NCBI GenBank assembly: GCA_963741205.1
Contig: CAVUHW010000037.1
Span: forward strand, 1-19,659
DNA length: 19,659 bases
Source: Nitrospirota bacterium
Lineage (GTDB): Bacteria; Nitrospirota; UBA9217
Reading direction: 5' to 3'
Shown: piece by piece, positions 1-18,082 of the stretch
How the letters are laid out: the number at the start of each line of letters is the position of its first letter
Numbering within the stretch: the stretch's first letter is position 1
Made by a program: the position numbers and the translations under genes
The notes under the pieces: generated by a model
What the model was told of the DNA's origin: nothing
The model's database searches: none
What the model saw: only the letters and a program-made list of their open reading frames with translations

Positions 1-516
1 GAAGGGGGCCCGTATCACGGAGTAGTCCTGCCGTACGCTTACGTCCGAGGTAGCCGCCCGGAGCTGCGACTTCACTACCGCATGGGCCCTGCGCACCGCG
101 TCCAGGTCCTGCTGCGAGATCATGCCTTTTGCGAAAAGGTCTTCTGAACGTCTCAGATTTTTTTCCGCTTCCTCGAAGGTCGCCTTGCTCTGGGCAAGCG
201 CGCTATCGCTCTGAACTGATTCCTCCGTAAGGTCAAGCCGCGCGATCAAAGCGCCCGATTTGACGAGGTCGCCTTCCGTGACCGGCAGACTCACGACCCT
301 GCCCATGCGCTGGGCCGAGAGTATTACCTCGGTCTCTGATTTTACCGTTGAGGTCGTCGTCGCGTTGACGATGACGCGGAGCTCGCCCGGTTTGAGCTCG
401 GCTATCCTGACCATCACCGGTTTTTTAAGGGTCACCGCGAACAGCACGGCGGCCACGACGGCGCAGAGGACAAGCCAGGCGATCTTGCTTTTTACGAGTC
501 TGCCAATGAACGACAT
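1..516 (-). CDS. Efflux transporter periplasmic adaptor (membrane fusion protein, HlyD/AcrA/MacA-like); 3' end runs off the window
   Basis: Not in the ORF track; translated by hand from ATG at 516: MSFIGRLVKSKIAWLVLCAVVAAVLFAVTLKKP...VILSAQRMGRVVSLPVTEGDLVKSGALIARLD...AEKNLRRSEDLFAKGMISQQDLD...YSVIRAPF. Shows an N-terminal membrane anchor, a lipoyl half-motif and an alpha-hairpin; lies downstream of tolC. Confidence 0.9.
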   Translation of the reverse strand, partial: MSFIGRLVKSKIAWLVLCAVVAAVLFAVTLKKPVMVRIAELKPGELRVIVNATTTSTVKSETEVILSAQRMGRVVSLPVTEGDLVKSGALIARLDLTEESVQSDSALAQSKATFEEAEKNLRRSEDLFAKGMISQQDLDAVRRAHAVVKSQLRAATSDVSVRQDYSVIRAPF

Positions 517-517
517 A

Positions 518-977
518 TTACGATTCCTTCGGGTCCTTCTTCGCGTTATATTCAAGCCGCGCCTTGATGTTCTTCATGAAGGACCTGCACACCTCGCCCA
601 GTTTCTCCGAAACGACCATGTCCTGAAGAAAGGTGAAGTGGCCGGTGACGTGACCTTCGAGATGGTAGGTGATCTCGGTCACGTCCTCTGAAACCTTGCG
701 GAACGTAACGACGCCCGAAGTGAGCAGATGTTCATGAGTCGCGGTCCACGACATCCGCTTCTGCTCCTCCAACTCCGTCGTATGCGCCTTCATCTCGATT
801 GTCCGGCTGAAAGGTCCCAGCGACATCCTGATCGTCCAGATGGAGTCCAGATCGTTCAGGATCTTGACCCCTTTGCAACCGGGGAAACAGGCAGCCCACT
901 TCGGGGCGGTCCGTCATGAAGGACCAGACGCTTTTAACGGGCAGATTAATGGTGAACGTGACTTCTTTTGATGGCAT
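518..977 (-). CDS. SRPBCC/CoxG (START-fold) family protein, about 153 aa, one apparent frameshift near 880-885
   Basis: Joining ORFs 732..977 and 518..826 across the ccgggg run gives MPSKEVTFTINLPVKSVWSFMTDRPEVGCLFPGCKGVKILNDLDSIWTIRMSLGPFSRTIEM...; the 'VW.F.TD...V..C.PGC' pattern is typical of CoxG. GGAG lies upstream. Confidence 0.75.
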
Positions 978-1036
978 TTTTTCTCCTGCTTCCTGTGGTT
1001 TTCAACTCCAAACCGTGAACGCAGATCTCCAAACTG

Positions 1037-2377
1037 CTATTCTTCGCCCCTTCCCATTGCCTTCATAAGCCGTGCGGCGGAAAGGTAATAGTCATAGAGG
1101 GCCTGCACATGATCCGTTTCCGCCCTGAAGTTCGCGAGCCGTGCATCGGTGACCTCGAGTGAAGGTCCTACGCCGGCCTGGTACCTTCCCTCGGCAAGTT
1201 CGAGGTTATCTTTCGCATTTTTCTCAGAAATCTCCATCACGGAAATCCGGGCCGCGGCTGTATCGAGGTCGGCATAGGCCTGGTTAACCTCGAGCAGGAT
1301 CGACTGTCTGAGCCCGTCCCGCTGCGCTTCGAGCGCGCGAAGGTTTGCCCGGGCCTCGCTCACCCTTCCCTTCGTCAAACCTCCCTCGAAGATCGGCATC
1401 GAGAGCAAAACGCCGGCATTCCAGCTGTTCCTGATGTCGCTTTGAAACGTGGCGGACCCCAGTGTGCTGACCGGAATGGTCGCCTCCGAAGTTCCATGCG
1501 CCCAATTATACGATCCGTTCGCGGAGAGTGTCGGAAGATAATTCGACTCGGCCGTCCTGACCCGCGCCTTCGCGGCCTCGATATCTGCAGCTGCCTTTTG
1601 CATTTCAGGCCGATTATTCAGGGCCTCCGTCTGGATCTGGTCCAGAGCCGGCACCGCAGGCGGCTGGGGGAGTTTTTTTTCGATTTCGAGATCGCCGCGC
1701 GGGTCGATTCCCATTGCGTTGCACAGCGCGATGGTTCGAAGTCGGACATCGTTTTTGGCGTTGATCACGCCGAGACGTGCCGAATTCACATCGACCTCTG
1801 CGCGTGTCACATCGAAGCGAGGCTTTGAGCCGGCCCGAAAAAAAGCCTCTGCCTGCCGCATGTGGCCCTCGGTCTGATCAAGCGTCTGTTGAGCCACCAT
1901 CAGCAGCTTGTTTGCCTGAAGCAGCGCATAGTAGGCCTGTTTTACATTCAGGATCACTTCCTGCTTTACGCGGTCGGCATCCGACGCAGCTGACTCAACT
2001 GCCGAGCGGGCGGCATCAAGGCCGCCGCCGGTCTTCCCGAAGTCGTAGATGACCTGGTTCACCGACAGCGTCGTGGTATAGCTCTTCGTGACGCTCTCTC
2101 CCAGTTGCAGCGCTGATCCGAGGGAGCGGCTTTCGGCGTAACCGGTGCTCGCCTGCACCTGAGGCAGATAGGGAGAACTTGCCTGGGTCACCCGTGCCTT
2201 TCCCGCGTTGAGACCTTCTTGCGCAGACCTCAGGGCCGGATGATTCGCCAGTGCCGTGTCGAGGCAGTCGCGAAGGGTCAGCCTCGCCGCCGCGTCTGCG
2301 AGACCCGCGGCTATCGCCATGATCAGCAGCAGGGCGACCGCGGCGCGCATGATCATGTTCATCTTCACCTGCTCCAC
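1037..2377 (-). CDS. TolC-family outer membrane efflux protein
   Basis: 446 aa with a signal peptide, 'LTLRDCLDTALANHPAL', two OEP repeats (YLPQV / YLPTLS) and C-terminal 'LAEGRYQAGVGPSLEVTDA'. True start may be a slightly later Met. Confidence 0.95.
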   Translation of the reverse strand: MEQVKMNMIMRAAVALLLIMAIAAGLADAAARLTLRDCLDTALANHPALRSAQEGLNAGKARVTQASSPYLPQVQASTGYAESRSLGSALQLGESVTKSYTTTLSVNQVIYDFGKTGGGLDAARSAVESAASDADRVKQEVILNVKQAYYALLQANKLLMVAQQTLDQTEGHMRQAEAFFRAGSKPRFDVTRAEVDVNSARLGVINAKNDVRLRTIALCNAMGIDPRGDLEIEKKLPQPPAVPALDQIQTEALNNRPEMQKAAADIEAAKARVRTAESNYLPTLSANGSYNWAHGTSEATIPVSTLGSATFQSDIRNSWNAGVLLSMPIFEGGLTKGRVSEARANLRALEAQRDGLRQSILLEVNQAYADLDTAAARISVMEISEKNAKDNLELAEGRYQAGVGPSLEVTDARLANFRAETDHVQALYDYYLSAARLMKAMGRGEE

Positions 2378-2949
2378 CGGAGTGCAAATTCCATCGCTGC
2401 CCCGGCTATAAGAGGGATGGTGAGATTATCGTTGAGGGGGAGCGGCAGGAGTTCGACTCCGGCCGCGACAAGGGCGCCGAGAATCATGACCCCGGAAGAG
2501 ATTCCCAGTTCCGCGAAGGACAGGAGGTATCCGCCAAAAAGTGCGGCAATGACAAACGCAACGGTACCTTCCAGACTCTTGTTCCCTATTTTCATCCTTC
2601 CGAACCGTTGTCCTATCGTTGTTGCCGCCACATCTCCGAAGGCGAGAAAACAAATGGCTGTGGATGCCGCCGGAGCTGAAAAGGCCCATAACGAGAGGCC
2701 TACGCCGAGGATATAGGGCACGGTGCCGGTCAGCCTGCGTTCTTCGTTCTCCCGGACGAAACTCCTGAAATATGTATAGAGAAAACGGTTCCAGGCGGGG
2801 ATCTTGAGCCGCGCGATTTCAACGGCAAGAACAAGGACAGCGAGCATTCCGTAAAGTTGCAGCGCCGTCTTCCTGCCCGAAGCATAATAGAGCGACAGGA
2901 GCCCGAGTCCGCCGAAAAAATGAAAGAGTTTACGTCCGAGATGATTCAT
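2365..2949 (-). CDS. Polyprenol/phytol/dolichol kinase-like membrane protein (CTP-dependent, cytidylyltransferase superfamily)
   Basis: From Met at 2949: 'RKLFH', 'LAFGDVAATTIGQRFG', 'KSLEG' and 'DNLTIP', the signature motifs of SEC59/VTE5-like kinases; hydrophobic throughout. Confidence 0.85.
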   Translation of the reverse strand: MNHLGRKLFHFFGGLGLLSLYYASGRKTALQLYGMLAVLVLAVEIARLKIPAWNRFLYTYFRSFVRENEERRLTGTVPYILGVGLSLWAFSAPAASTAICFLAFGDVAATTIGQRFGRMKIGNKSLEGTVAFVIAALFGGYLLSFAELGISSGVMILGALVAAGVELLPLPLNDNLTIPLIAGAAMEFALRWSR

Positions 2950-2980
2950 GCGTTTTCGGTCCCGCCAATCCCTGACGCCG

Positions 2981-3988
2981 TCATTCCCGCTTTCCGCGCG
3001 CATAACTCGGCAGGCTGCAGACCTGCCCCGATTCACACTTGTCGCACTCGAGCTGGATCGTACTGTGAAGAACGTTGAATTTCTCTGACAACATATCTTT
3101 GATTTCTTCGATGATGTCCTTGCTCCCGCTTACCATCTGGTCGTCGATGAGCACGTGGGCGCTCATGGCATAGACGCCCGACGTGATCGTCCAGGCATGG
3201 ATATGATAGGCTTCGCGTACGCCCCTGATCTTCGCCATCTCCGCTGCTACATTGTCGATATCGATGTGGCCGGGCACGGCCTCCAGAAGAATATTCACGG
3301 ACTCCTTCACGAGCGCCCATGAACCGTAGATGATGACCAGGGAGATCATCATGCTCAGGATCGGGTCGATCAGGTACCAGCCGGTATACAGGATGATGAT
3401 GCCGCCGATGATGACGCCGACGGACGAGAGCGCGTCGCCGACGATATGGAGAAACGCGCCCCGGATATTGAGGTTGGTGTCCCGGTGCCTGATAAGGATG
3501 AAAGCGCCGGCGATGTTGGCAACAAGACCGATGACCGCGATGATCAGCATCAGCATGCCCTGTACGGGCTGCGGATGCAGCATCCGCAGATAGGCCTCAT
3601 ACATGATGTAGAGCGACAGGAGGACGAGGACGATGCCGTTCAGTAGGGCCGCCAGGATCTCGAGGCGGTAAAAGCCCCAGGTCTTTCGCTCCGTTGCCGG
3701 CAGGGTGGCGAATTTCATCGCGAAAAAGGAAAGCAGGAGGGCGAGGTTGTCCGTCAGCATGTGGCCGGCATCGGACAAAAGGGCCAGGCTGTTCGAGAGC
3801 AGGCCGCCGATCACTTCGGCCACCATCATGAGAACGGTGATCGACAGGGCGATCAGAAGGTCGCGTTTGCCTTCGGCAGGGGCCTGGCGCGGCCCCTCTT
3901 CGAGCGCATGGTCGTGACCATGGTGATCATGGCCGTCGTGCCCGTGGTCATGAGGACGATGTTCGCTATGCGAATGAAACAAAGACAT
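2981..3988 (-). CDS. czcD: Cation diffusion facilitator (CzcD/ZitB-type Zn/Co/Cd exporter)
   Basis: 'SLALLSDAGHMLTD', 'GFYRLEILAALLN', 'NIRGAFLHIVGD', 'HIHAWTIT', 'HSTIQLE' and a His-rich N-terminus; AGGAG upstream of ATG 3988. Confidence 0.93.
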   Translation of the reverse strand: MSLFHSHSEHRPHDHGHDGHDHHGHDHALEEGPRQAPAEGKRDLLIALSITVLMMVAEVIGGLLSNSLALLSDAGHMLTDNLALLLSFFAMKFATLPATERKTWGFYRLEILAALLNGIVLVLLSLYIMYEAYLRMLHPQPVQGMLMLIIAVIGLVANIAGAFILIRHRDTNLNIRGAFLHIVGDALSSVGVIIGGIIILYTGWYLIDPILSMMISLVIIYGSWALVKESVNILLEAVPGHIDIDNVAAEMAKIRGVREAYHIHAWTITSGVYAMSAHVLIDDQMVSGSKDIIEEIKDMLSEKFNVLHSTIQLECDKCESGQVCSLPSYARGKRE

Positions 3989-4041
3989 GATGCAAGACGC
4001 TCTCCTCAGTCCTTTGACCAAAACCGCAGATCCGTCACCGC

Positions 4042-4824
4042 TTAAATCGCGCCGATCTCCGCGGCGTAGCCGTAAAAAGTCAGCAGGCCTTTTCGCTCCT
4101 CCTCGCCGAAACCGTAGCTGAACAATTTCCAGTATTCAAAGAGAACCTCCGCAGGCAGGTTGAACCGGCCTTGTTCCGCGTCAGCAATCTCCCCGAGATG
4201 CGACAGCCCATAGTTCCGGGACTCCATGAGTATATCATACAGCCGTTCAAGCTCCTTGTGAATGTTTTTCCGGTCGTTCACCTGCCAGAGCGCGAATACA
4301 AAGGGCAGGCCGGTGAAATCATGCCAGAGCCGGCCCAGATCATAATGGTAGGCGTATTTCGATGCCATGGACTTCTTGATCGCCAGATCCCCGATCGTGA
4401 GCAAGGCGTCGGCCTGCTTCGAAGGGTCTTCCGCGCCCTGCTCATAGAGTATATAGCCGGGATTCACGCCATACCGGATTTCGAGAAGGATGCGGAGCAG
4501 GACGACCGACGTGGCCGATGCGGTGGTCAGGGCAACGACCCGGTTATTCAGTTCCTCGATTGGGAACTTGCTTTCGAAGAGGATGCTCATGACCCTGCTC
4601 TTCGAGGTAATCGAGAGGTCCGGCATGAGGAGGTAACGGCCCGGGTTCATGGCATACTCGATGGACGACGAAGGCGACACATCCACGAAGCCCTCGTAGA
4701 GCAGCCGGTTCAACTGCGTCGGGATGCCTTCCACCAGTTTAAACGGAAAGGCGACCTTCCGCGTTACGATCCCGGCGTGAGGAGGGAAACAGTTTGAATA
4801 GATGATATGGCCGAGTTTGAGCAT
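4042..4824 (-). CDS. mqnA: Menaquinone biosynthesis protein, chorismate dehydratase (futalosine pathway, MqnA/MqnD family)
   Basis: 'LGHIIYSNCFP', 'P..LNRLL..G.VD.SP.SS.EY', 'SATSVVLL', 'LTIGDLA' and 'DLG..W...TGLPFVFALW' are characteristic of MqnA. Confidence 0.88.
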   Translation of the reverse strand: MLKLGHIIYSNCFPPHAGIVTRKVAFPFKLVEGIPTQLNRLLYEGFVDVSPSSSIEYAMNPGRYLLMPDLSITSKSRVMSILFESKFPIEELNNRVVALTTASATSVVLLRILLEIRYGVNPGYILYEQGAEDPSKQADALLTIGDLAIKKSMASKYAYHYDLGRLWHDFTGLPFVFALWQVNDRKNIHKELERLYDILMESRNYGLSHLGEIADAEQGRFNLPAEVLFEYWKLFSYGFGEEERKGLLTFYGYAAEIGAI

Positions 4825-4859
4825 TGTGCAATCGCCTGGCACAACCACGATGAACCCGC

Positions 4860-5055
4860 AACTCCTGATTGATAACAGCGTTTATCCACGCGGTAGTTCG
4901 ACTGTGAAACATCCTGTTCGGCGATCTTGATGCCTCGTTGCTGCCGAGAGCGGCCTGGTAAGCTCGTCGAGCGTAGTATACCTTCCGCGACCACGCCGGC
5001 GGAGCGGCCATCCGATAAGGACCATGACAATGATGAGTGCCCGCAGTGTTCTCAT
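4860..5055 (-). pseudogene. Truncated N-terminal fragment of a probable TolC-like protein
   Basis: AGGAG upstream of ATG 5055. Across frames it reads signal peptide MRTLRALIIVMVLIGW..., then 'TLDELTR..ALGSN.GIKIAEQDVSQSNYRVDK', resembling the first TolC helix, and then breaks off just before mqnA. Confidence 0.5.
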
Positions 5056-5095
5056 GAGGTTGGGATCCTGTTCTCCTGGTTGCAATCTGCGCGGG

Positions 5096-5753
5096 TCATT
5101 TTTCGGACGCCAGACCGTTGAAAAAGAGCTCCGTAACAAAGGCGCCGAATCTCCGGGGACAGATTTACGCTTTTCCCGTGAACGTATTCAGCCATGGGCT
5201 GAAGGATGAAATTATGAATGATGACGCCGATCAGCGACGCCGCAGCCAGCGAAGGATCGAACTTCTTCAGTTCTCCTTTTCGCATGCCTTCCTTGAAGAA
5301 TTCCGTAAGGCGTGCATAGTTTTCCGAGAAATACTTTTCACAGATCCATGTGCTGTTGCCTCCGCTTGCCGCAAACTCCATGGCCATGATCCGGCGCAAG
5401 TCTTCATTGTTCTGGTGAAATCGGATGGCCCCTTCGACGTACCGTTGTATCTTCAGACGGACCGGGGCCGAGGACTTGAAAATCTCGTTTTCCCAAATGG
5501 CCTTAAGCGCCGAAAATGAATCCGCAAGGACGGATCGGTAAAGGTCGTCCTTGTCCTTGAAGTGGTAATAGATCATCGCGTTATTGACCTTGGCCGCTTC
5601 GGCGACCTCCCTGACCGACGTGCCGTCGAGGCCCCGCTCGGCGAACACGCACCGCGCCGCCGCGAGGATCGCGCCGCGGGTGTCGCCTTCCGTCCGTCCC
5701 GTTTTCGGGCGGCGCCCCGGCGTGCTCTTGTGGTCTTTTGATAATCGTTTCAT
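5096..5753 (-). CDS. TetR/AcrR-family transcriptional regulator (probable frameshift near 5155; uncorrected ORF reads to 5052)
   Basis: HTH 'TRGAILAAARCVFAERGLDGTSVREVAEAAKVNNAMIYYHFKDKDDLY'. The alternative frame gives the typical ending 'FGAFVTELFFNGLASEK*' with TGA at 5096-5098. Confidence 0.92.
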
Positions 5754-5762
5754 GGCATTTAT

Positions 5763-5819
5763 TTAACTAATCGGTTAATTAATTAATACAAACGATACCT
5801 GCTTGCATATATTTGTCAA
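5763..5819 (-). promoter_or_regulatory. Sigma70-type promoter and candidate TetR operator
   Basis: Minus strand TTGACA (5819-5814), 16 nt, TATCGT (5797-5792); inverted repeat TTAAC-N6-GTTAA at 5763-5778 between the promoter and the ATG. Confidence 0.6.
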
Positions 5820-5903
5820 GCGTATTTTGTCCGATGGCGGTGGTGCTATTGCCCTTTACAGGGTCGGGTAAATCGGGAAACGAGGTGGACCGGCGGCTCA
5901 CCG

Positions 5904-6941
5904 TCATATCTCCAGTCCCCGTTCAGTCCGTGCCGGATAAATAAACACCGCCTCCTGTTCGATACGGATCTCCTGCGAGGAGACATTCTCCAGGATGAAA
6001 CGCAGCTGCGTATTGCGATAGGTTAGATTTTTTTTATAGGCCCGGACATAGACCTTCATCTTTGCCGCGCTGTTGGGCTGCAGGACAAAGGGGTTCTGGC
6101 TCATGATGAGCTCCGCGTCCTTGATTCCCGCGATTCTCAGGCGGAATACTTCAGGATCGAGACTCCGGTTTTCCACGATCAGGGAATAGGCATTTATCGT
6201 GTCGTCTTTTTTCCCCGCCTGTGTGTAAGGCTGGGGGTCATCGCGGGATACCCAGAAATCCAGCGGCACCCGCACATAGAGCTGATAGGCAAACAGGACG
6301 GCGATGAATGCGAATGCCGTTGAGAGACCGAGGACACGAAGCCGGGGCCGATGCATCGCGGTCGTCGAAGAAGGCAGTCCGCAAACTTCGCATAGGGACA
6401 GATCTGACGCGCAAGATCTCCGGCGCACGAAGGAGATATTCAGATAGATGAGAACGGTGATGAAGACCCAGGACAGGAATGTCCAGGGGCCAAGGTTGAG
6501 CATGAAGAGGTCGGCCGCCATCTCCCAGGGCGGGACGAAATACCAGATAAGGTTTGCCGCTACAATCATGGACAGGATCAGGAGAAGTGTCCGAGACGAC
6601 GCGAAGCCTGCAAGCCGGCGGCCGCCGAACCTGGTGGACAGTTGATCGATCTTTCTCGTAAAATCGGAGAGGACGGTCTGCGGGCACACCCATCCGCACC
6701 AGGCGCGGCCGTAGAGAACGGTAAAGAGCAGAACGCCGCTCAGGAAGAGGAGAAAGACAAGCAGGAAGAAATACTTCTCGCTGACCCAGATGACGGCGCC
6801 GAAAAAATAGAGTTTAAGCGACGGGATATCGAAACGGAGGGCGCTTTCGCCGTGGACCCGTATAAAAGGAAGGGTAAGCATGACCGCCGCCACCAGCCAC
6901 GCGGAGACCCGGCGTTGGGTTCGAAATATCGTTTTTTCCAT
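5904..6941 (-). CDS. CcoG/FixG-like membrane Fe-S protein; central ferredoxin segment apparently missing
   Basis: 'GRAWCGWVCPQT' motif, TM helices and a C-terminal FixG Ig-like domain ('INAYSLIVENRS...FRLRIAG'). The second motif (C...CPY...FFD) is scrambled by frameshifts and no CxxCxxCxxxCP motifs are present. Confidence 0.8.
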   Translation of the reverse strand: MEKTIFRTQRRVSAWLVAAVMLTLPFIRVHGESALRFDIPSLKLYFFGAVIWVSEKYFFLLVFLLFLSGVLLFTVLYGRAWCGWVCPQTVLSDFTRKIDQLSTRFGGRRLAGFASSRTLLLILSMIVAANLIWYFVPPWEMAADLFMLNLGPWTFLSWVFITVLIYLNISFVRRRSCASDLSLCEVCGLPSSTTAMHRPRLRVLGLSTAFAFIAVLFAYQLYVRVPLDFWVSRDDPQPYTQAGKKDDTINAYSLIVENRSLDPEVFRLRIAGIKDAELIMSQNPFVLQPNSAAKMKVYVRAYKKNLTYRNTQLRFILENVSSQEIRIEQEAVFIYPARTERGLEI

Positions 6942-7028
6942 TTGAAACTATCCCCTCTCCCCCGCCTTTCCCCACCCGACAGGAGCATTCGAGGACAGGC
7001 TCCTGGGAGAGAATCAGGGACGGCTGCA

Positions 7029-7537
7029 TTATGAACTCGCCAATTGCCCTCTGATCTCGCCTGCAGGGAAGATCTGGGTGTGTATCTGGACGTACAGTCC
7101 GCCGGCTTGAAGGGCGTTGAGCTGAGCAGCTGTCAACACCGTGCCCGCGGGCACAGTCCATGTTCCACTCGTCAATCCTATCCCACCGGTAAGGGGAATG
7201 ATGATCAGCCCGTTTACTCCCGCCGCGCCCTCATGGATATGAGCGGCTGTAGCAACGCTCGACAAGCCGGAGAAACTCACCGTGCCGCTGAGCGCGCCTG
7301 TGGCGAAGTTGACCGAAAGGACCGCGCTGCCGGTCCCGGCCGTGGCAACCGGCGGAACTTCCTGAGCGCCGCTCAGGGAGGCTGTCACAGGCAACCAGTG
7401 ATGCAGCAACCGGCATCGAGGCGGCTGTTCCCGAGGGGACTCCACCGCCTCCGCACGATGCGGCAATGACCGCCAGAAGAAAAAAACCACCGGAAATGAG
7501 GTGTAATGTATCATGGTTTATATTGTATCTTCATCAT
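7029..7537 (-). CDS. CHRD domain lipoprotein (single CHRD; frameshifts in N-terminal part; start 7537 or 7514)
   Basis: CHRD motifs 'LSGAQEVPPVATAGTG', 'TAAHIHEGAAGVNG' and 'GGLYVQIHTQIFPAGEIRGQL'. Adding one T to the T7 run restores FFLLAVIAASC-GGGG (lipobox-like Cys at 7453-7455). AGGAGGGAGG RBS upstream. Confidence 0.85.
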
Positions 7538-7939: not shown

Positions 7940-8857
7940 ATGATACACCGTAGACATTTTCTCTGGTCAATCATATTGCTGGTCGGGGTGATCGCTTTGT
8001 CAGTTGCGGTAGTAGCAGCAGATAACAACGCCGACTCCAACGCCAACACCAACAGCTACAGTCACAAAATTTGCAACTCTTGACGGCACCCAGGAAAGCT
8101 ACGCCCGTTACCACGACCGCGAACGGCGCGGGAAGCCTTACAGTTGATACAGGAACGGGAGCTGTGAGCGGTTCCCTGACAATACTGTCGGCCCCTGCAA
8201 CAACGGTCAACAGCGGCGCATGTGCATGACGGGGCAGCGGGCAACGCAGTCATTATTCCCCTGAGCGACTCGGGAGGCGGTGTGTGGAGCGTTCCAGCGA
8301 CCGCTCACGCCGCTGACCGCGGCACAGATAGCCTCGTTCACGGCCGGCACCCTGTATTTTAATGTCCATACGACCGCTAACGCAGGTGGTGAGATACGCG
8401 GAAATATCAATAAAACCACTGCAACTCTGTACGCTCGGATCTGGACGGCGCCCAGGAAAGCCCGCCCGTTACCACCAGCGCAGCCGGCACGGGAATCCTG
8501 ACGGTGAACGCAGCACACGGGAGCTGTGACTGGCTCCCTGAACGGTACTCCAGTTCTCAACCGGCTGAGCGCGTACAGCGGTTCACTGGACGCATTACAT
8601 ACGTAGCGGCGCCTGGCGTGACTACATACGGGCAGCTCGATGTGGTCACGCACGCTGCGACGTCGGGTAACGCTGTGTAGTGCATGGAGCGTTCCGGCAC
8701 ACACACTGGGCGGCGGCGTGTGGAGCGTTCCCGCAAACACGGTGCTGACTCGGCCCAGATAGCCTCGTTCATCAGCGGGAACCTCTATTACAACGTGCAT
8801 ACGACCGCCAATCCAGGCGGCGAGATCCGCGGAAATATCATCCTGATCGCGCCGTAG
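7940..8857 (+). CDS. Tandem (2x) CHRD domain probable lipoprotein with Pro/Thr linker; multiple frameshifts
   Basis: AGGAGGGAGG RBS. Hydrophobic signal MIHRRHFLWSIILLVGVIAL, then 'SCGSSS' and 'TTPTPTPTPTAT' in shifted frames. Two copies of LDG.QE..PVTT...G.G.LTV...GVWSVP...AQIASF..G.LY.NVHTTAN.GGEIRGNI. TAG at 8855-8857. Confidence 0.82.
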
Positions 8858-8889
8858 TCAGTTGAAGGATAAATTGATCCAGTCTCTTC

Positions 8890-8942
8890 ACGCCGTCCGA
8901 TGCGGAAAGCATTCGCTTCCGCTTCGGGCGGCGTTTTTTTTT
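8890..8942 (+). terminator. Rho-independent terminator after the tandem CHRD gene
   Basis: ACGCCGTCCGA-TGCGGAA...TTCCGC-TTCGGGCGGCGT hairpin followed by a T run. Confidence 0.8.
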
Positions 8943-9094
8943 AGAAAGTTCTGATTCAATACCTGAATCCCTGCATTCCTCAAGGTCCGTTCAATCTTCA
9001 CTTACGGGAGGCATTCACCGGAATAGGTATTCCCCCTGACTTAATGCGATTCCAAGAGGGGACAATGAGGAAGTTCAATGGAGGTATGAGGAGA

Positions 9095-9848
9095 TTATAA
9101 AACAGGCGCAATCGACGCCGTTATGGCAACTGGAACATGCGGGCGCAAACCCTGTGCCGCTCGCAGACGATACTGCCTTTCAGATCAAGGCCGTGGCAAG
9201 TCGTGCAGCCGGCAACGAAGTCTCGTCCGTAGGTGCCGTGGAAACCGACGGGATCGTCAGTCGCTGTCAACCATCCTGACGGATGTCCGATGTTGCCGTC
9301 GGGCCCGTTATGGCAGGCAAAGCAGCTCACCTCGTGCGATGCCGCCGTCCAGGTTCGCTCCGTGGCACTGGCTGCACAGGGACGTATCTCTCACCTCTGA
9401 AACAGGTGCTGCGCCGCCTATCAGGCTGGAAAGATAGCCTGCGATGTCCCGGATTTCCTCCTGGCTTAAGACGGCCTGTCCCCGCATGAGCGGGACCCCA
9501 TTGATGGTGCCTGTTATGTTGGCCGGGATGTCCGTCGAAAATTGTAAAATGGCGAGGATGTTTGGGCCGACCTTTCCCTTGGCGGTGCTGCTGTGGCAGG
9601 GAGCGCAGTGCCGTATGAACAGCGCGGCTCCATTGCCGGCGGTTTGTTCCGGCGAGACTGATGTGACCGGGGTAGCGTGGAAGTCCTGCGTGCCGATCGC
9701 AAGCGGACTTGCCCACTGGCTCGGGATGGCCTGTTACCGGAACAAAGACTTTGCCGCGAATCGGTGCCCTTTGCAGGCACGCAGCCATAAGAACGATATC
9801 GCGAGGAGTGCGAGGCCGGATTCGTTATTCTTCCTATTTGATGGACAT
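9095..9848 (-). CDS. Multiheme cytochrome c, probable lipoprotein, 5 CxxCH motifs (frameshifted; start uncertain)
   Basis: CxxCH codons read directly: CAPCH 9593-9607, CSQCH 9362-9376, CFACH 9310-9324, CTTCH 9193-9207, CSSCH 9123-9137. Hydrophobic 'GLALLAISFLWL..AC-KG' N-terminus; ends PVL-TAA at 9095. Confidence 0.8.
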
Positions 9849-10315
9849 TGTTTGCATAGCCTGTTGTTCTGGGTCCCGTGACACCGGTAACAGCTCGTCG
9901 GGTCGAGCCTTCCGTCGATCCTGTGCTGGAAGAGGTAGTCGCCCCGGTGGGGCAGCCACCGCTCGGGAGAACCCGAATATTTTTCACTCGGCTTCAATTC
10001 GTCCTTATACGCGTGGCAATCCGTGCAAAATGAGACCTTGTGGCAGGCATTGCACAACCGGGACGACTGCGAGGCGTAAAACCGGTGGCCGCTGATGAAA
10101 TCGGCGCTGTGGTTGAACGTGGCAATCGGTTTAAGGGCAACGCCCGTGTCTTCCGTATGGCATTCCGTACAGCGAGGCATCGCGGTGAGCTCGATGGGAT
10201 GACTGTCCGGGATTTTCCGTTCGAGCGCGGAACTCAATTCCGGCGACGCGGCGAACAGGATCAGCAGAGATGCCACGAGATAAATTGCACTCGGTATTTT
10301 TTTCTCCTCCATCAT
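9834..10315 (-). CDS. Secreted (probably periplasmic) multiheme cytochrome c; 4 intact CxxCH plus a fifth broken by a frameshift
   Basis: Signal peptide (…ILFAASPELSSA), CTECH, CNACH, CTDCH, CYRCH and terminal CKQC followed by out-of-frame CAT; extra His ligands (SHP, NH, GH, PH, QH). ATG sits right after the porin stop. Confidence 0.88.
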
Positions 10316-10316
10316 G

Positions 10317-11561
10317 TCATCTCCCGCTCTTGAAATTGTATACAAGGTTCAGCAACACCGTGGTGTTATGAAGAAAATCCGGGGTCTTACTATAGTCAAC
10401 GCTCAAATTGGACGTCAACGAGTCGCTGATCGTGTACCGGACAGTTCCGTTCAGTGAATAGGCATCGCTGACGCCGTTAAAAGGCACATCGTAATGATGA
10501 TTGATGGCATCGAAGGAAAACCTCCAGCCTTCCATGTCCTCGGCGACGTAGACCCGTGCCTCGCGGTATCTGAGCTTATCCACGGCGCCCTCCATCCTGT
10601 GGATACGAGGCACCTGCGGAGGTTTTGGAAATTGCCACGATAATTCCGGCGCCGTAATATGCGGCTTCTCCCATGGTCTTGTACGAATAGTTCGTGTAGT
10701 CGACGACTCCCCTGATGCCGTCTCTGAACCGGTATTCCGCCATGCCGCCCAATTTTCGTCAGCGTCTCGCCTCTCCGAGAAAATCCGGAGAGAACACGCT
10801 AAGCGTCCGCGTTGCAAATGCGTCATCATAGTCTGTCCTGGTATACAGACCCGAAAGGATCAGTTTGTTCATGGGAATATCTTGAGGGTATAAGCAGTGT
10901 TCTCCCCATCCTTCCGTTATATTGTTGTAGTACGAATGCCCCTTAAGCTCAACCTTCCGGTAAGGAAGGAGCCAGACATCGACTCCGGTTTCTTCGCGAA
11001 AGCGGGCCTTGTCGTTGGTTTCGTAGAGCAGAGACAACCCGATCTCCGCCCGGTTAGAGAACCGCTGGTACACCCTGCCGCCGTACGCGGCATCGCCTCC
11101 GCGGGTGTCGAACGCCGTCACGACCGGCGACCCGCCGAACAGGGAAAGGCCGTTGGATGGCGTCGCCTCCCAGCGCGACGAGACACCGTCGACTTGCTCC
11201 GTGGCGACACCCTCGAAGATGTAGTGTCTTCCCGCATACAAGAGCAGCCGTTTGTCCTGATAGGGTGAATAGCGCAGATAGGCATAGGTAAGTTCGTCCC
11301 GGGTTTTGTCTCCGAACTCCACGGTCTTGAAGTCATGCGCCCCCCACGCGGAAACGTGAAAGTCCCACTGTCCCTGCTTCTGGTCCCTGCCGTCCAGTTC
11401 CACATATTCATTCAGGGGGGCGTATTGCTGGTCCCGCGCATCATGAAAGAACCTGAGATAGGTTTTCGAGGTCACGTCTGATTTCAGCGGGAGAACTTCG
11501 GGGAAATACGATGGGCGCAGAAGACGGCAAGCAGTAACGATGTTCGGGCTGTGAATGTCAT
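10317..11561 (-). CDS. Outer-membrane beta-barrel porin, probable porin subunit of a porin-cytochrome complex (about 410 aa, frameshifted)
   Basis: Signal peptide MTFTARTSLLLAVFCA from ATG 11561. ORFs 10759..11631 and 10317..10829 give amphipathic, aromatic-rich strands (APLNEYVELD, LLYAGRHYIFEGVATEQVDG, YGGRVYQRF, REETGVDVWL) and end 'LLNLVYNF'. Directly upstream of two multiheme cytochromes. Confidence 0.78.
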
Positions 11562-11602
11562 CCAAGTACTCACTTCGTGGTCTGAATGATATCTGATAAT
11601 GG

Positions 11603-12010
11603 TCAGGTCTTCTGACGCGCCATGTCTTCAAAATTCGCTTTTTTCAGCATGTCCGAAACTTTGGCCTGCACGTTAAACCACAGGGCGTGAGAGGGGCACT
11701 GCTTGGAAAAACTGCATTTTTTCTTGTCGGTAATGCAGATATTCATCGCGAGTTTTCCTTCGATGGCCTCGAGCACTTCAAGGACGGAAATCTCGCGCGC
11801 CTGCCGGGCAAGTGAAAATCCGCCCTTGACGCCGCGGTACGACCGTACGATCTTCGCCTTCACCAGCTTCTGGAGGATCTTGGCCAGAAAACTCCTCGGG
11901 ATCTTGTATTCCTCCGATATTTCGTTGACGAAACTGACTTTTTTAAAAGGCTGGCGGGCAAGATACAAGACGCTGCGTATGCCGTAATCACCTTCCCGTG
12001 TCAGTTGCAT
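11603..12010 (-). CDS. Rrf2-family transcriptional regulator with Fe-S ligands
   Basis: 'LTREGDYGIR', 'FLAKILQKLVKAKIVRSYRGVKGGFSLAR', 'ISVLEVLEAIEG' and Cys triad CITDKKKCSFSKQCPSH. Confidence 0.95.
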   Translation of the reverse strand: MQLTREGDYGIRSVLYLARQPFKKVSFVNEISEEYKIPRSFLAKILQKLVKAKIVRSYRGVKGGFSLARQAREISVLEVLEAIEGKLAMNICITDKKKCSFSKQCPSHALWFNVQAKVSDMLKKANFEDMARQKT

Positions 12011-12044
12011 GGTCTTAGTATATCGAACCCTCTGTCATTGTCAA
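12011..12044 (-). promoter_or_regulatory. Near-consensus sigma70 promoter of the rrf2-porin-cytochrome cluster (probably leaderless)
   Basis: TTGACA (12044-12039), 16 nt, TATACT (12022-12017), 6 nt, ATG (12010); no SD sequence. Confidence 0.7.
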
Positions 12045-12136
12045 GCCGGGCCAAGAGCTTTTTTGTCCGGGTCTCTGATCCATTCTGATTCAAGAAAACC
12101 AGGTACTGTGATATAATGAGCCCATCAGGAGGCCGC

Positions 12137-12792
12137 ATGAAATCTGCGTGCATCATTGTTTTCGTTGCAAGCATTCTCCTTCTTCCTGCCGCGACGCCGG
12201 CGCAAATCCTCGGCACGGCCGGACTCTCCGGGGTTGTTTATCCGGCGGGCGCGTCAGTTACGCTGCTCTCCGGAAAGCGGACAGAGGGCTGACGTTGACC
12301 ACTGCTTCCGACGGGAGATATGATTTTGGCTCCCTTGCCGAAGGGAAGTATGTTCTTCAGGCTTCCTCCCCGGGGTACGCGGGTGATGCGGTCGAGGTCC
12401 GACTTTCCGGGGAACGGCATGCCGTTCAAAACATGAGGCTCCTCTATATCTCCCCGATCGACGGAATAGACTGGTCAAAAGGGATCATTCGCGCCAAAGG
12501 ACGGGGCATGTATCCGTCGGACGCGTCAAACCGGCCTGCCGCGCGTGAAATGGCAAAACGCGCCGCTCTTTCCGAAGCCGAGCGAAATCTCTTGCGGATC
12601 GTCGAGCAGATCAAGCTCGGCCCGAAGCAGGAACTCACTTCTCTGCCTGCCCGTAGTTACATCACGAGAATCCACGGCTATCTCCAGGGCTTCCGCGTCG
12701 TTGGCGAGCGGGAAACGGACGCCGGCGTTGAAGTGGAGCTGGAGCTTCCCTTGACCGGACAGAGCGGCTTGACGAGATATATTTCAGATTAA
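12137..12792 (+). CDS. Secreted protein with carboxypeptidase-regulatory-like domain and C-terminal LPP20-like domain (frameshift near the N-terminus)
   Basis: AGGAGG, then ATG 12137 with signal-like MKSACIIVFVASILLLPAATPA; 'TTASDGRYDFGSLAEGKYVLQASSPGY'; 'IDWSKGIIRAKGRG...MAKRAALSEAERNLL'. Confidence 0.65.
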
Positions 12793-12816
12793 GGTCTATA
12801 TCATCCCGGAGTCATA

Positions 12817-13371
12817 ATGGGGCACATACATAGACCTCTGCCGGTCAAGCTGTTCATCGGTATGCTGTCTCCGGAACTTGATCTGTTCGGCGCCTGCTCT
12901 GAAATTCTGCAAAAGGAATTCGGTCCAATCAAGAGCGGCAGCGAATGCATGCCCTGGGACAGGTCGGATTACTACCAGGAAGAGATGGGGCGGAATATTT
13001 TCCGGAAGTTTCTGTTCTTCGAACGGTCAACGGACCCGGGAAAATTGTCCTCCATAAAAAGGTTCACCAACGATCTTGAAAATGACTATGCCGTCAAGAG
13101 CGGCCAGCATCTACGACGAAGGATCAACCTCGACCCCGGGTATGTCACGGAAGCCAAAGTCGTTCTCGCATCGGCCAAGGACTTTGCGCACCGCGTCTAT
13201 ATCGGAGACGGCATCTATGCTGAGGTTACTTTGAAGTACAACACGAAGGATCGAAGTTTTGTCCCCTGCGAGCACACCTATCCCGATTTCAGGACGGCGT
13301 CCTATCTGGCACTGTTTAACAACGTCCGGGAGGATCTTCGGACGGAATTGCGCAAAACCCGCCACTCCTGA
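12817..13371 (+). CDS. DUF4416 family protein
   Basis: 'PLPVKLFIGML', 'DYYQEEMG', 'RRINLDPGYV...VVLASAKDFAHRVYIGDGIYAEVTL' and 'HTYPDF'. Confidence 0.85.
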   Translation: MGHIHRPLPVKLFIGMLSPELDLFGACSEILQKEFGPIKSGSECMPWDRSDYYQEEMGRNIFRKFLFFERSTDPGKLSSIKRFTNDLENDYAVKSGQHLRRRINLDPGYVTEAKVVLASAKDFAHRVYIGDGIYAEVTLKYNTKDRSFVPCEHTYPDFRTASYLALFNNVREDLRTELRKTRHS

Positions 13372-13567
13372 TCTGTCGGAACATCGTGTCGCTGTCATGG
13401 CTTTAGGGATTGACAACCCCATTCAATCATAAAAATCCAGGGGTATCAAATCCGACTCATTTTTTTGCTGGCTAAGGAAATCGCATCCCGCGACCTTCAT
13501 AGGGAGACGAATGGATGTGCATCAGCGGTGATCTCGGTGGGAGAAGCGGATTTCGCCGTCATCAGGG

Positions 13568-13969
13568 TCATGAAGGTTCGGCCCCTTGAGTTAAAGCAGT
13601 TCCACCGGCGCTTTCCAATGCCGCTTCGACAATCCTGCCTAGTTCTTTCGCCTTGATGGGTTTGTTGATATATTCGAATACACCAAGACTGAGCGACTTC
13701 AAATACGTCTCGATGGCTCCATAACCCGTAAGGATGACCACTGGGACCTCGGGAAGAAATTGTTTCAACTGGACGAGAAACTCCAGGCCGTCCATTCCCG
13801 GCATGCGGTAATCCGTTATCACGAGATCCACAGGGGCGCCTTCTTGAATCACCGACAGAGCGGATGGGGCGTCCGGCTTGGTTATGACATTGTAGCCGAA
13901 ACGGTTCAAGATCTCACCAAGACTTCTCCGGATCTCCAGTTCATCGTCCACCAGAAGCAGTGTTTTCAT
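13568..13969 (-). CDS. Single-domain response regulator receiver (CheY-like)
   Basis: 'LLVDDE', 'DLVITDYRMPGMDG', 'ILTGYG' and 'YINKP'; no output domain. Confidence 0.92.
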   Translation of the reverse strand: MKTLLLVDDELEIRRSLGEILNRFGYNVITKPDAPSALSVIQEGAPVDLVITDYRMPGMDGLEFLVQLKQFLPEVPVVILTGYGAIETYLKSLSLGVFEYINKPIKAKELGRIVEAALESAGGTALTQGAEPS

Positions 13970-14596
13970 TGGTTCTGATCTCCGTAGATTATAGCAGGTA
14001 TATTCGGGACACCTTTGTTATTTGTTATTCACACCCGGACCATGAAAAAGCCTGAACACGAGCAAAATGCCATGCACTTTTATACCTCTTCGATAATAGC
14101 ATAAATAACTGTTTCATACTACCGAAGTCGTAAAAAACATAAAATATATAGTAAAATCAAGCTAATATACTATATAGTTTCTGCTTTATTGACGTAGCTG
14201 CGAACGACTTTCTCTTTTTTTCCAGTGTATTATCTACGGAATTTTATCGTCATAAATTAATTAAAACTTTAGTTTTAGTTTAACCATTAAAATCCTTTGT
14301 AAATCAATATATTGTATAAAATATACCAACGCAGAAAGCATTTCTGCTGGAAAAATATTCCGAACGCCCTTCACTCACGCCAGACACTCGTAATCGATGG
14401 GAACAGACAGTCGGAAATAAGTGGACACACTGTGCATCACTAAAAGGAATGCCTATGGGTCTCGCTTCTGGTCTTCGCCGTACTAGTATTTTAAACAAAT
14501 GAAAAAATCAGTAAGCCGTTATTTCTCGGGCAAAAAGGCATTGATTAAGCTATACTTATTTTCACGACCCTATAATAACTCACAAAGGAGATTCCT

Positions 14597-15433
14597 ATGA
14601 CCACTGACGCGTGTCCCATCACAAAATTGGACAAGATTCTATTGGCAACCGACGGGACCGCTTACAGCGAAGGAGCGATACGGGAAGGGATAAAATTCGC
14701 CGCTAAATGTTCGAGTAGGATTTACGCCTGCATGACGATTGAGACGAACCCCGAATATGAAACGATCGGGTCCAGCGCCATGGCAAAAGAGGAAGAAGAG
14801 GCGACTGCACACCTGAAGACCATCAAGGCCAGGGCGGAAAAAGAAGGAGTGACCTGCGAGACTATTTTTCATGAATCGATGGAAGCCTCGCAGGCCATCG
14901 TCGATGACGCCGCTGACAGGATGATGGACATGATCGTTATCGGCAGGCACGGATACAAAGGCCTGGTTAAGGCCTTGATGGGTGAAACTGCCGCAAAAGT
15001 CATCGCCCATGCCCCCTGCAAGGTCCTCGTTGTTCCGAAGGCCGCCCAGATAGAATACAAAAACATACTGGTCGCTACCGATGGCTCGGCTCACGGCAAT
15101 GCGGCAGTCAGTGAAGCGATCACCATCGCCAAGCGTTGCGGAAGCCACGTCATCGCGCTTTCGGCAATGCGCGATGAACGCGAACGGGATGAGGCAAACA
15201 CCTTATCAAGCACTGCCGTTGAACTGGCGCGAAAGGAGGGAGTTTCGGCGGAGGCGGTGACTCCCATGGGGAGATCGTACGACGTAATCGTCGAAACGGC
15301 AGGCGGCAGAGGGGTCGATCTCATCGTGATGGGGGCCTACGGGAAAACAGGCGTTAAGAAGCTCTTGATGGGAAGTGCGACGGAAAAGGTCATCGGGTCA
15401 GCCGGCTGCGCCGTGCTCGTGGCCAAGGCATAG
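14597..15433 (+). CDS. Universal stress protein, two tandem USP domains
   Basis: Two 'IL.ATDG' starts, 'IVIGRHG...MGETA' and 'IVMGAYG...MGSATEKV'; AAGGAG RBS. Confidence 0.95.
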   Translation: MTTDACPITKLDKILLATDGTAYSEGAIREGIKFAAKCSSRIYACMTIETNPEYETIGSSAMAKEEEEATAHLKTIKARAEKEGVTCETIFHESMEASQAIVDDAADRMMDMIVIGRHGYKGLVKALMGETAAKVIAHAPCKVLVVPKAAQIEYKNILVATDGSAHGNAAVSEAITIAKRCGSHVIALSAMRDERERDEANTLSSTAVELARKEGVSAEAVTPMGRSYDVIVETAGGRGVDLIVMGAYGKTGVKKLLMGSATEKVIGSAGCAVLVAKA

Positions 15434-16251: not shown

Positions 16252-17031
16252 CTAGAACCTGACGGTCACACCAGCGCGAACCGACTGGTCTACTTCCGTG
16301 TCATTGCGTCCGAACAGGAATCCCGCACTCAGATCCAGCGAGTCCTGTGGAGAATAGATGAGACCGATCTGAGCGAAGACGGGATAACTGCTGTCTGTGG
16401 AATCAGCATTTCTGGTTGCACCGATTTCTCCCACGATCTTCCACCGTTCAGCCATTGCAAATCGACTGGCAAGCGAACCGAGCCATATATTGGTGCGATT
16501 CCCCGATGAGTTCGGGAGATACAGATAGCCGAGATTCACATCGAAGGACCAGGGTTCAGCATCAACGGTCGAGATCAAGGATGCTGAATAGTCAACGTGA
16601 CCAGATCCCAGACCCTTGTCCGCATCGCCCGTGGGAATGATTATGCCGGGTTTGATCGCCAGACTGAGTTTTTGCTTGTCGAAGAATCGCCATTTTGCCT
16701 CAATAGCGGTATCGAAAAGTCCGTGATTTCTCGTAATCGTTCCTGATTCTTTTGTGTCAGTCCATACATAGGGCACAGTAACCATCACATCCATGGTCTC
16801 GGCAATTCCTGCGGTCAATACGACCGTGGCAATGGAATTAAGCTCTCTCACTCCCTCGCCACCCTCGTTTTTCTTGTCGGTAAGCCAGGTGCCCGATGCT
16901 TCGAGTTGATACTTTCCGGTCCCCTGCGTCCCCGTATCATCCGTAACAAGCGGATGCGCCGCCCATGATGCCGCCGGTATTACCAAAACCGCACAAAGCG
17001 TAAATATTCCGGCCAGCTTCTTCAAATACAC
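16252..17031 (-). CDS. Outer-membrane beta-barrel 'transporter' (Phenol_MetA_deg/COG4313-like)
   Basis: GTG start after GGGGAGG; signal peptide ending ASWA; 'HPLVTDDTGTQG', 'AKWRFF', 'PTGD..KGLGSG..D'; C-terminal Phe (VTVRF). Confidence 0.8.
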   Translation of the reverse strand: MYLKKLAGIFTLCAVLVIPAASWAAHPLVTDDTGTQGTGKYQLEASGTWLTDKKNEGGEGVRELNSIATVVLTAGIAETMDVMVTVPYVWTDTKESGTITRNHGLFDTAIEAKWRFFDKQKLSLAIKPGIIIPTGDADKGLGSGHVDYSASLISTVDAEPWSFDVNLGYLYLPNSSGNRTNIWLGSLASRFAMAERWKIVGEIGATRNADSTDSSYPVFAQIGLIYSPQDSLDLSAGFLFGRNDTEVDQSVRAGVTVRF

Positions 17032-17175
17032 CGATCGATCTCCTCCCCATCTTGGTTCATAGATACTCTTAAAACATCATTACGTGCCTGTCTTTCATGG
17101 TATCAATACATGATTCATCAACAACGTAAATATCGTCATGACCTTAATTGTTCTGTCTTGACTTGATACACATTT

Positions 17176-17922
<747 letters not shown>

Positions 17923-18082
17923 CTCCACCTCCGCATTCCCCTTTGCCAAGGTTCCATCATTCCTCAGTCCAGACATAATTTCGCTAGTCTACTTCTCCCA
18001 CTTCCGTTTCCAAACCAGACCATAATCAACATCATCACCGTATTGTAAAATTACTTTTCCTTACTGCTGGCGCCTCCTTTTT

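Follow-up and report, generated by a model that had tools for sequence, protein, structure and literature searches.

Does a compact group of genes from a member of the phylum Nitrospirota encode a route by which electrons can cross the outer membrane? The question is raised by a stretch of 19,659 nt from contig CAVUHW010000037.1 (GenBank assembly GCA_963741205.1), referred to here as the window, where positions 9095–12044 of the minus strand carry, in order of transcription, genes for an Rrf2-family regulator, a β-barrel protein and two multiheme cytochromes, here termed cytochrome A and cytochrome B. An initial annotation of this DNA had proposed that the cluster has the architecture of a trans-outer-membrane electron conduit, a proposal with which a structural model of the barrel, a predicted complex holding the cytochrome in the barrel lumen, and the conservation of the pair in 48 of 49 loci all agree at the level of prediction. 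In our judgement it is likely that the cluster encodes an outer-membrane porin–cytochrome module preceded by its own Rrf2 regulator.

The barrel and its pentaheme cytochrome

When open reading frames (ORFs) are called with translation table 11, the Rrf2 gene (11603–12010; 135 aa) is the sole intact gene within 9095–12044 and the remainder is scattered over several frames; as the initial annotation had noted, frameshifts conceal most of the cluster from the ORF track. The other three genes, all on the minus strand, were restored using frameshift-aware alignment against intact homologues. In this way an ExtB/ExtE-like outer-membrane β-barrel of ~413 aa (10317–11561) was recovered through a full-length alignment with protein P0002, cytochrome A, an ExtC-like pentaheme of ~160 aa (~9834–10315, with the 3′ end taken from homologues), through alignment with the pentaheme of genome locus L001, and cytochrome B, a lipoprotein pentaheme of ~248 aa (9095–9848), through alignment with protein P0064. 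The genes are closely packed, with 41 nt between Rrf2 and the barrel and 1 nt between the barrel and cytochrome A, whilst the genes for cytochromes A and B overlap. The four-gene make-up given at the outset (Rrf2, a barrel of ~410 aa, a cytochrome with four intact CxxCH motifs and one disrupted, and a cytochrome with five) proved accurate in these alignments and in a six-frame translation, where the nine intact CxxCH motifs of the entire 19.7-kb window were all found at 9123–10171 of the minus strand. The mean number of such motifs in 200 shuffles of 9095–10348 was 0.09, with a maximum of 1.

The restored barrel protein aligns with residues 1–413 of the intact 413-aa P0002 at 87% identity (358/411), and comprises a signal peptide followed by the barrel, with no fused cytochrome. 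A protein search with a fragment of the barrel found 43 relatives, including intact proteins of 413–414 aa that are up to 85% identical; most are annotated as ‘hypothetical proteins’, and the named ones come from Nitrospirota. The fold of the window protein is deduced from an AlphaFold2 (AF2) model of P0002, as an intact homologue 85% identical to the window barrel. This model, built from a 34-sequence alignment, has 22 β-strands after a signal helix (pLDDT 84.2, pTM 0.72), and a Foldseek comparison of it with the PDB retrieved outer-membrane barrels, including OccAB4 (1e-10) and the usher pores FimD and PapC (TMq 0.51–0.55). The product of 10317–11561 is thus predicted to be a barrel, as had been supposed, and according to the model it is an integral outer-membrane β-barrel of a ~413-aa, 22-strand family. 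The family is widespread: a profile search of 1.84 billion representative proteins returned 559 at E <= 1e-3, 330 at <= 1e-10 and 143 at <= 1e-30, and in the ESM Atlas the barrel falls among clusters that are unnamed or named ‘beta-barrel porin 2’, with Thermodesulfobacteriota, Nitrospirota and Zixiibacteriota the commonest sources. Scans of the barrel against Pfam and NCBIfam at E-values up to 1 assigned it to no family, and a PDB sequence search with the barrel profile gave chance-level matches only (best E 0.051). In two of the barrel homologues, P0108 and P0111, the C-terminus is drawn out into a long extension whose last part is a tetraheme c3-like segment; P0111 contains a class I heme motif as well.

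Cytochrome A has a signal peptide, lacks a lipobox Cys and retains four intact CxxCH motifs. The fifth heme motif is cut by an indel after C-x-x-C (~9845), at the place where the homologues end in C-x-x-C-H; the frame is open up to this C-x-x-C, and the protein is 76% identical to the L001 pentaheme. An alignment of 46 sequences of the pentaheme family revealed five invariant or nearly invariant CxxCH motifs and five further invariant His residues, and the latter are consistent with five bis-His hemes. Of these 46 sequences, 43 have the lipobox Cys; it is absent from L001, L002 and L005, which are the closest genome relatives, and from the window protein. A PDB sequence search with the pentaheme gave 0 matches.

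Docking of the two proteins was modelled using those of L001, the closest genome relative, whose barrel and pentaheme are 55% and 76% identical to their counterparts in the window. Co-folding of residues 29–417 of the L001 barrel with residues 39–167 of its pentaheme and four hemes gave a score of 0.89, against 0.00 for the best of three controls; in calibration, 116 of 157 solved complexes attained the mark, as did 2 of 215 mismatched pairs. The runs share >=93% of their contacts and the partner pLDDT is >=83. On the barrel, the contacts are made by alternate, lumen-facing residues on nearly all of the strands, a pattern that places the modelled pentaheme within the barrel lumen. A conserved loop of 22 residues between strands 13 and 14, which has low confidence in the monomer, is among the best-defined contacts of the co-fold. 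The idea that a cytochrome docks in the barrel, on which the conduit proposal had depended, therefore finds support in the model, and a sheath-and-wire core consisting of the barrel and the pentaheme is well supported.

Relationship to Ext-type and other conduits

A scan of one genome per species located the barrel family in 52 genome loci, 8 of them in Nitrospirota and the rest mainly in Geobacter/Desulfuromonadales; the related loci include some from Ca. Sulfobium, Thermodesulfovibrionales and metagenome-assembled genomes (MAGs) from fracture water. In three loci (L003, L012 and L034) no more than 244 nt of sequence remain beyond the barrel, and these were left out of the count. Among the 49 loci with enough DNA, 48 encode a pentaheme homologue immediately after the barrel, the exception being L051, which has room for the gene but does not carry it, and the co-conservation of these genes in relatives that the initial annotation had anticipated is thereby supported. 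The downstream pentahemes are ~150 aa long, contain five CxxCH motifs and are 38–67% identical to the L001 protein (38–53% for the Geobacter-type pentahemes). One locus encodes a second pentaheme paralogue ~2 kb upstream of its barrel (L038:7995-8483), which is 42% identical to the L001 pentaheme.

In 18 Geobacter-type loci, the genes encode a cytochrome of 290–330 aa with 12 heme motifs, the barrel, a five-heme lipoprotein and a further lipoprotein cytochrome, in that order. This matches the order and the heme counts of extABCD, for which the published account describes ExtA as a periplasmic dodecaheme cytochrome, ExtB as a barrel, ExtC as a pentaheme lipoprotein and ExtD as a lipoprotein cytochrome (PMC6148476). 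As the barrel and pentaheme families of the window are shared with these 18 loci, the window barrel can be described as ExtB-like and its pentaheme as ExtC-like. The cluster also resembles extABCD of Geobacter sulfurreducens (GSU2645-2642) in having the barrel followed by a pentaheme of ~155 aa and then by a lipoprotein cytochrome. Similarity to the barrels of the Geobacter-type loci is detected by tblastn at E-values of 1e-30 to 4e-43 and 27–32% identity. The same account reports extBCD loci that lack a nearby extA, frequent replacement of the outer lipoprotein, and a role for ExtABCD as the only Geobacter conduit essential for electrode reduction (PMC6148476); ExtB and ExtE have been treated as a single porin family, found in an Acidobacterium, in a second study (Arbour et al., PMC7399161).

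The differences from ExtABCD lie at both ends of this core. A counterpart of the 12-heme periplasmic ExtA is absent from the cluster, with no CxxCH motif in the window outside 9123–10171, and in the 8 Nitrospirota loci the ~600 nt preceding the barrel contain no gene for a multiheme cytochrome; the earlier remark that the cluster contains no large deca- or dodecaheme subunit is thus correct. The window pentaheme lacks the lipobox Cys kept by most of its homologues, a 248-aa lipoprotein that carries a class I His/Met heme stands in place of ExtD, and the Rrf2 regulator and genes for CHRD-domain proteins are additions. The barrel itself is diverged. In a maximum-likelihood tree, which left out L003, L034, L043, L049 and L051 (truncated or mis-delimited), the Nitrospirota barrels are found on one side of a branch with an SH-aLRT value of 97, with a long branch of 1.22 between them and the Desulfuromonadales clade (SH-aLRT 100). 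A recent transfer from Geobacter was rejected because of this deep split, which sets the Nitrospirota barrels apart in a clade of their own. The description of the locus as an ExtBCD-like minimal conduit consequently stands for its B and C components but fails for the second cytochrome, which is not ExtD-like. From its sequence, the Nitrospirota cluster appears to be a variant of the known ExtBC-type conduit that is distinguished by cytochrome B, the CHRD and cupredoxin proteins, and Rrf2. A literature search found no paper describing such a cluster in Nitrospirota, which is weak evidence given that subscription journals are poorly covered.

Other porin–cytochrome systems are more distant. The sheath-and-wire structure of MtrCAB from Shewanella oneidensis is represented by PDB entry 6R2Q, and differs in the 26 strands of its MtrB barrel, compared with 22 in the model described here, and in having 10 hemes within the barrel partner rather than 5. 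The likeness, as modelled, lies in a barrel that encloses a multiheme cytochrome and in a lipoprotein cytochrome as the third part (described for MtrCAB in PMC6148476). MtrB and PioB had been named as comparisons in the initial annotation; the window barrel has no match to the corresponding Pfam family, neither the barrel nor the pentaheme has a PDB sequence match, and the DmsE-family model matched only a Geobacter homologue, far below the cut-off (0.0038). Membership of the MtrB family was rejected on the grounds that there is no Pfam or NCBIfam match and that the cytochrome has five hemes and is not a decaheme. The Fe(II) oxidase Cyc2 is called to mind by six relatives of the barrel (L002, L003, P0031, P0033, P0097 and P0098) in which a monoheme cytochrome c domain is fused at the N-terminus. 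This domain is a complete one of class I and leads into a linker, whereas the window barrel is unfused, and the model has 22 strands against the 16 reported for Cyc2 (PMC13647500). Membership of Cyc2 was also rejected, the window barrel being set apart by its architecture.

Cytochrome B, the CHRD-domain proteins and the Rrf2 regulator

Cytochrome B has five CxxCH motifs and a lipobox Cys, and is 86% identical (209/244) to the intact 248-aa P0064 in a frameshift-aware alignment; the frame correction envisaged in the initial annotation thus restored both this protein and the barrel to 86% and 87% identity with intact homologues. It matches the Pfam family Cytochrome_CBB3 (1.5e-10), and its own family amounts to 53 matches, ~47 of which are close relatives of 220–294 aa. 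Across an alignment of 48 sequences the lipobox Cys is invariant, as are four of the CxxCH motifs (the remaining one being nearly so), Met119 of the class I domain and four further His residues. Relatives of the class I domain in the PDB are CcoP (1.8e-11), actinobacterial bc1 cytochrome c subunits (~1e-7) and the domains of PgcA (8qjg, 3.4e-7), the last deposited as ‘lipoprotein cytochrome c’; cytochrome B differs from all of these in combining a single class I domain with four further heme sites and in being encoded behind a barrel. Its AF2 model has an overall pLDDT of 74.3 and is confident in the class I domain only, and a Foldseek search with the model gave 0 matches at E <= 0.001, the best of the non-significant ones being class I domains. 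Among the genome loci, full-length homologues were found only in Nitrospirota (L001, L002 and L005–L008). Ten ‘longest contig’ lengths recur in the protein match lists of both the barrel and cytochrome B, which makes it probable that the two are encoded on the same contigs. Similarity to the downstream cytochromes of the Geobacter-type loci is weak and at the level of motifs (E 1e-4 to 1e-8). The possibility that cytochrome B is ExtD, a dodecaheme lipoprotein, was rejected in view of its five hemes, which include a class I His/Met domain, and of this motif-level similarity. By its sequence features, cytochrome B is a candidate for the outer-membrane redox lipoprotein of the conduit.

Two genes for CHRD-domain proteins lie outside 9095–12044. 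The nearer (~7940–8857, plus strand) is convergent with the cytochrome B gene and encodes two CHRD domains after a signal peptide; it is frameshifted, with fragments in several frames, and the CHRD match on the last fragment has an E-value of 5.1e-10. The second (7029–7514, minus strand; 161 aa) is intact (CHRD 2.6e-34). In relatives, CHRD is fused to the C-terminus of cytochrome B homologues, with three matched stretches in L006 (L006:2732-4600), two in L007 (L007:10799-12271) and one in L008 (L008:11624-13411); further fusions are P0242 and P0243, although P0243 may be the L007 protein itself. In L001, a CHRD lipoprotein gene is convergent after cytochrome B. Because of these fusions and of the convergent gene beside cytochrome B in L001, CHRD is regarded as a partner, and the CHRD genes of the window probably belong to the conduit system. 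The bacterial CHRD domain has long been unexplained and we know of no role for it in bacteria; its fusion to conduit cytochromes would provide a first functional lead. A literature search found no paper on a link between bacterial CHRD and cytochromes or on the function of bacterial CHRD, with the limitation that subscription journals are poorly covered. Other redox proteins accompany the Nitrospirota loci. Genes for cupredoxins of the plastocyanin/azurin family flank the L002 cluster on both sides (8977–9510 and 12454–13254) and one lies downstream in L005 (12434–13210), a MopE-like Cu-binding protein with six CxxCH motifs is encoded upstream in L008 (L008:7109-9376), and the class I domain fused to the barrel N-terminus, present also in P0031, P0033, P0097 and P0098, is encoded within L002:9494-11188 and L003:9527-10802.

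The regulator is a whole-protein Rrf2 domain: residues 3–132 match positions 1–131 of the 132 in the Pfam model (E 3.4e-35), the TIGR00738 score is 125.6 bits against a cut-off of 73.3, and rrf2_super is matched at 1.1e-36. It has the clear Rrf2 fold of IscR, NsrR and RirA, and in its pattern C-x6-C-x5-C-x2-H the third (last) Cys and the His align with residues 104 and 107 of E. coli IscR; it differs from these proteins in the x6/x5 spacing of its Cys residues and in falling below the NCBIfam equivalog cut-offs of IscR, the SUF regulator, RirA, NsrR and CymR. Judged by this pattern, the protein may bind an Fe–S cluster through three Cys and one His. The suggestion that the cluster is placed under an Fe–S sensor thus keeps the alignment with the IscR ligands in its favour, but it is the pattern that carries it, and the cut-offs of the IscR type are not reached.

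Upstream of Rrf2 there is a promoter-like site, TTGACA-16-TATACT (12044–12017, minus strand), that matches the consensus hexamers at 11 of 12 positions. The −10 element ends 6 nt before the Rrf2 ATG, so that a leaderless Rrf2 mRNA would be possible. L001 has the same two hexamers at the same distance from the ATG, with a different spacer between them. The initial annotation had described a single strong promoter here; the number of promoter-like sites in the region (three) does not exceed that in shuffles (1.7 +/- 1.3). The divergent plus-strand gene at 12138 encodes a CarboxypepD_reg-like protein with a signal peptide; it has a TATAAT without mismatch and an AGGAGG ribosome site, each also conserved in L001, and its promoter and that of Rrf2 share a 127-nt spacer (12011–12140) in a back-to-back arrangement.

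Weighing the readings, and the surrounding DNA

In the mechanism that we propose, the pentaheme would fill the barrel lumen as a heme wire within an insulating sheath, electrons would cross the outer membrane via its five hemes, and cytochrome B would dock at one mouth of the barrel and pass them on; the CHRD-domain proteins would be further partners, and Rrf2, perhaps with an Fe–S cluster, would set expression. We lean slightly towards a flow that is coupled to high-potential carriers, meaning electron uptake or Fe(II)/Mn(II) oxidation, because class I heme domains, joined in relatives by cupredoxins, take the place of the low-potential 12-heme ExtA. The points for inward flow, or for coupling to high-potential carriers, are the loss of ExtA, the invariant His/Met heme, the class I domains at the barrel N-terminus and the flanking cupredoxins, together with a working Cyc2 Fe(II) oxidase in Thermodesulfovibrionia, as reported in PMC13647500. 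In its fullest form, this reading has an ExtBC-type core rewired to a His/Met heme lipoprotein, cupredoxins and CHRD for lithotrophic electron uptake in Thermodesulfovibrionia-like anaerobes, for instance by oxidising Fe(II) or Mn(II) or by drawing electrons from minerals or partner cells, with CHRD as a redox or metal-binding end module; taken as a whole this is a tentative and rather doubtful proposal. More generally, the ExtB–ExtC pair would represent a conserved two-gene core that extends to Nitrospirota, with its partners swapped at both ends. The small pentaheme is listed in the literature as an extracellular lipoprotein, and its position in the model would make it the wire within the barrel, which offers a structural hypothesis for ExtBC itself. 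The Nitrospirota variant would be a candidate for electron exchange with minerals by groundwater organisms and by subsurface relatives of sulfate reducers, and so bears on models of Fe and Mn cycling.

Several points weigh against this interpretation. The co-fold used the L001 proteins, custom alignments and four of the five hemes, so that the calibration holds only roughly, and passing it would indicate a likeness to solved sheath-and-wire complexes such as MtrAB and not binding as such. The assignment to ExtB and ExtC was made through gene order and heme counts in Geobacter-type genomes other than G. sulfurreducens, at a barrel identity of 27–32%. Rrf2 adjoins the barrel in only 1 of the 52 loci, that being L001, where it is about 81–82% identical; the earlier description of the cluster as Rrf2-led thus applies to this lineage but does not extend to the other loci. 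The evidence on the direction of flow points both ways, and if the frameshifts were genuine, this organism would have no working system.

Outward flow as in Geobacter, which is the direction implied by the initial annotation, would make the cluster a stripped-down ExtBC conduit with which an anaerobic member of the Nitrospirota reduces Fe(III), Mn(IV), humics or a partner cell; this deserves serious consideration, even if we would not expect it to prove correct. PgcA of Geobacter, whose domains the class I domain of cytochrome B resembles (E 3.4e-7), is extracellular, the five extra invariant His residues of the pentaheme are consistent with bis-His ligation, the related loci come from Ca. Sulfobium, Thermodesulfovibrionales and fracture-water MAGs, and the hosts are anaerobic. 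The homology of barrel and pentaheme to Geobacter-type ext-like loci also favours this direction, ExtABCD being essential for electrode reduction (PMC6148476), as does the potential for Fe reduction in Nitrospirota MAGs that a FeGenie survey reports (PMC12740246). Set against these are the lack, in all 8 Nitrospirota loci, of a multiheme cytochrome gene in the ~600 nt upstream of the barrel, the invariant His/Met heme of cytochrome B, and, in relatives, the class I domains fused to the barrel and the cupredoxin genes that flank the cluster in L002 and L005. A different reading dispenses with a trans-membrane conduit and assigns the proteins, with CHRD and cupredoxin, a redox task in the periplasm or at the surface that acts on copper or some other metal, for example in detoxification or metal delivery. 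The association of CHRD and cupredoxin with the cluster, the MopE-like Cu-binding neighbour in L008, and the FixG-like, CDF transporter, and OEP- and HlyD-like efflux genes of the window would fit such a task; however, the barrel and pentaheme form the conserved core (48/49), most such loci hold large multiheme cytochromes, the model threads a heme chain through the barrel, and none of the metal-handling genes at 1–7000 is conserved beside the cluster in L001. We therefore consider a metal-directed task very improbable.

The same weighing has to extend to the state of the locus, as the conduit could have been lost in a decaying pseudogene region. There are >=21 frame changes within ~8100–12280 (4.2 kb), distributed across four transcription units: >=4 in the plus-strand CHRD gene, >=8 in cytochrome B, 1 in cytochrome A, 7 in the barrel (near 11513, 11479, 10896, 10871, 10773, 10756 and 10602) and 1 in the CarboxypepD_reg-like gene. 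None were found in Rrf2, the minus-strand CHRD gene, a DUF4416 gene or a response-regulator gene. Without correction, the barrel and cytochrome genes of this contig are not translatable. Decay is favoured by this concentration, since the tested genes on either side have no frame changes and the long ORFs at 1037–7514 are open with near-complete Pfam matches, and by an in-frame TGA in the barrel gene (10759–10761). Yet every break is a shift of one or two bases for which no long gap is needed, the only stop codon encountered lies inside a compensating pair, and the pattern reads as one of single-base indels. The barrel gene contains three compensating pairs 17–35 nt apart, in each of which the stretch between the two changes matches the homologue in the other frame. 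The corrected proteins are 86–87% identical to their orthologues and retain all heme motifs but one, and differently transcribed neighbours on both sides are also broken. The contig, moreover, contains a poly-T run of ~746 nt (17178–17923; GC 0.10 in 17001–18000), almost certainly an artefact of the assembly or of the reads, which serves as a warning on contig quality. The frameshifts are thus probably an assembly error arising from a locally poor consensus, perhaps in a low-coverage or strain-variable region, and genuine decay is unlikely.

Elsewhere in the window, scans for Rfam families and tRNAs found none, including at 13500–14600, where GC falls to 0.42–0.43 between the response-regulator gene and the tandem-Usp gene. 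The minus strand of positions 1–7000 has a metal-handling flavour, with an HlyD-like fragment, an OEP outer-membrane factor (1037–2377) and a CDF efflux protein (2981–4021); also encoded on this strand are an MqnA-like VitK2_biosynth protein (4042–4848), a TetR regulator (5052–5753) and a FixG-like 4Fe-4S protein (5904–6941).

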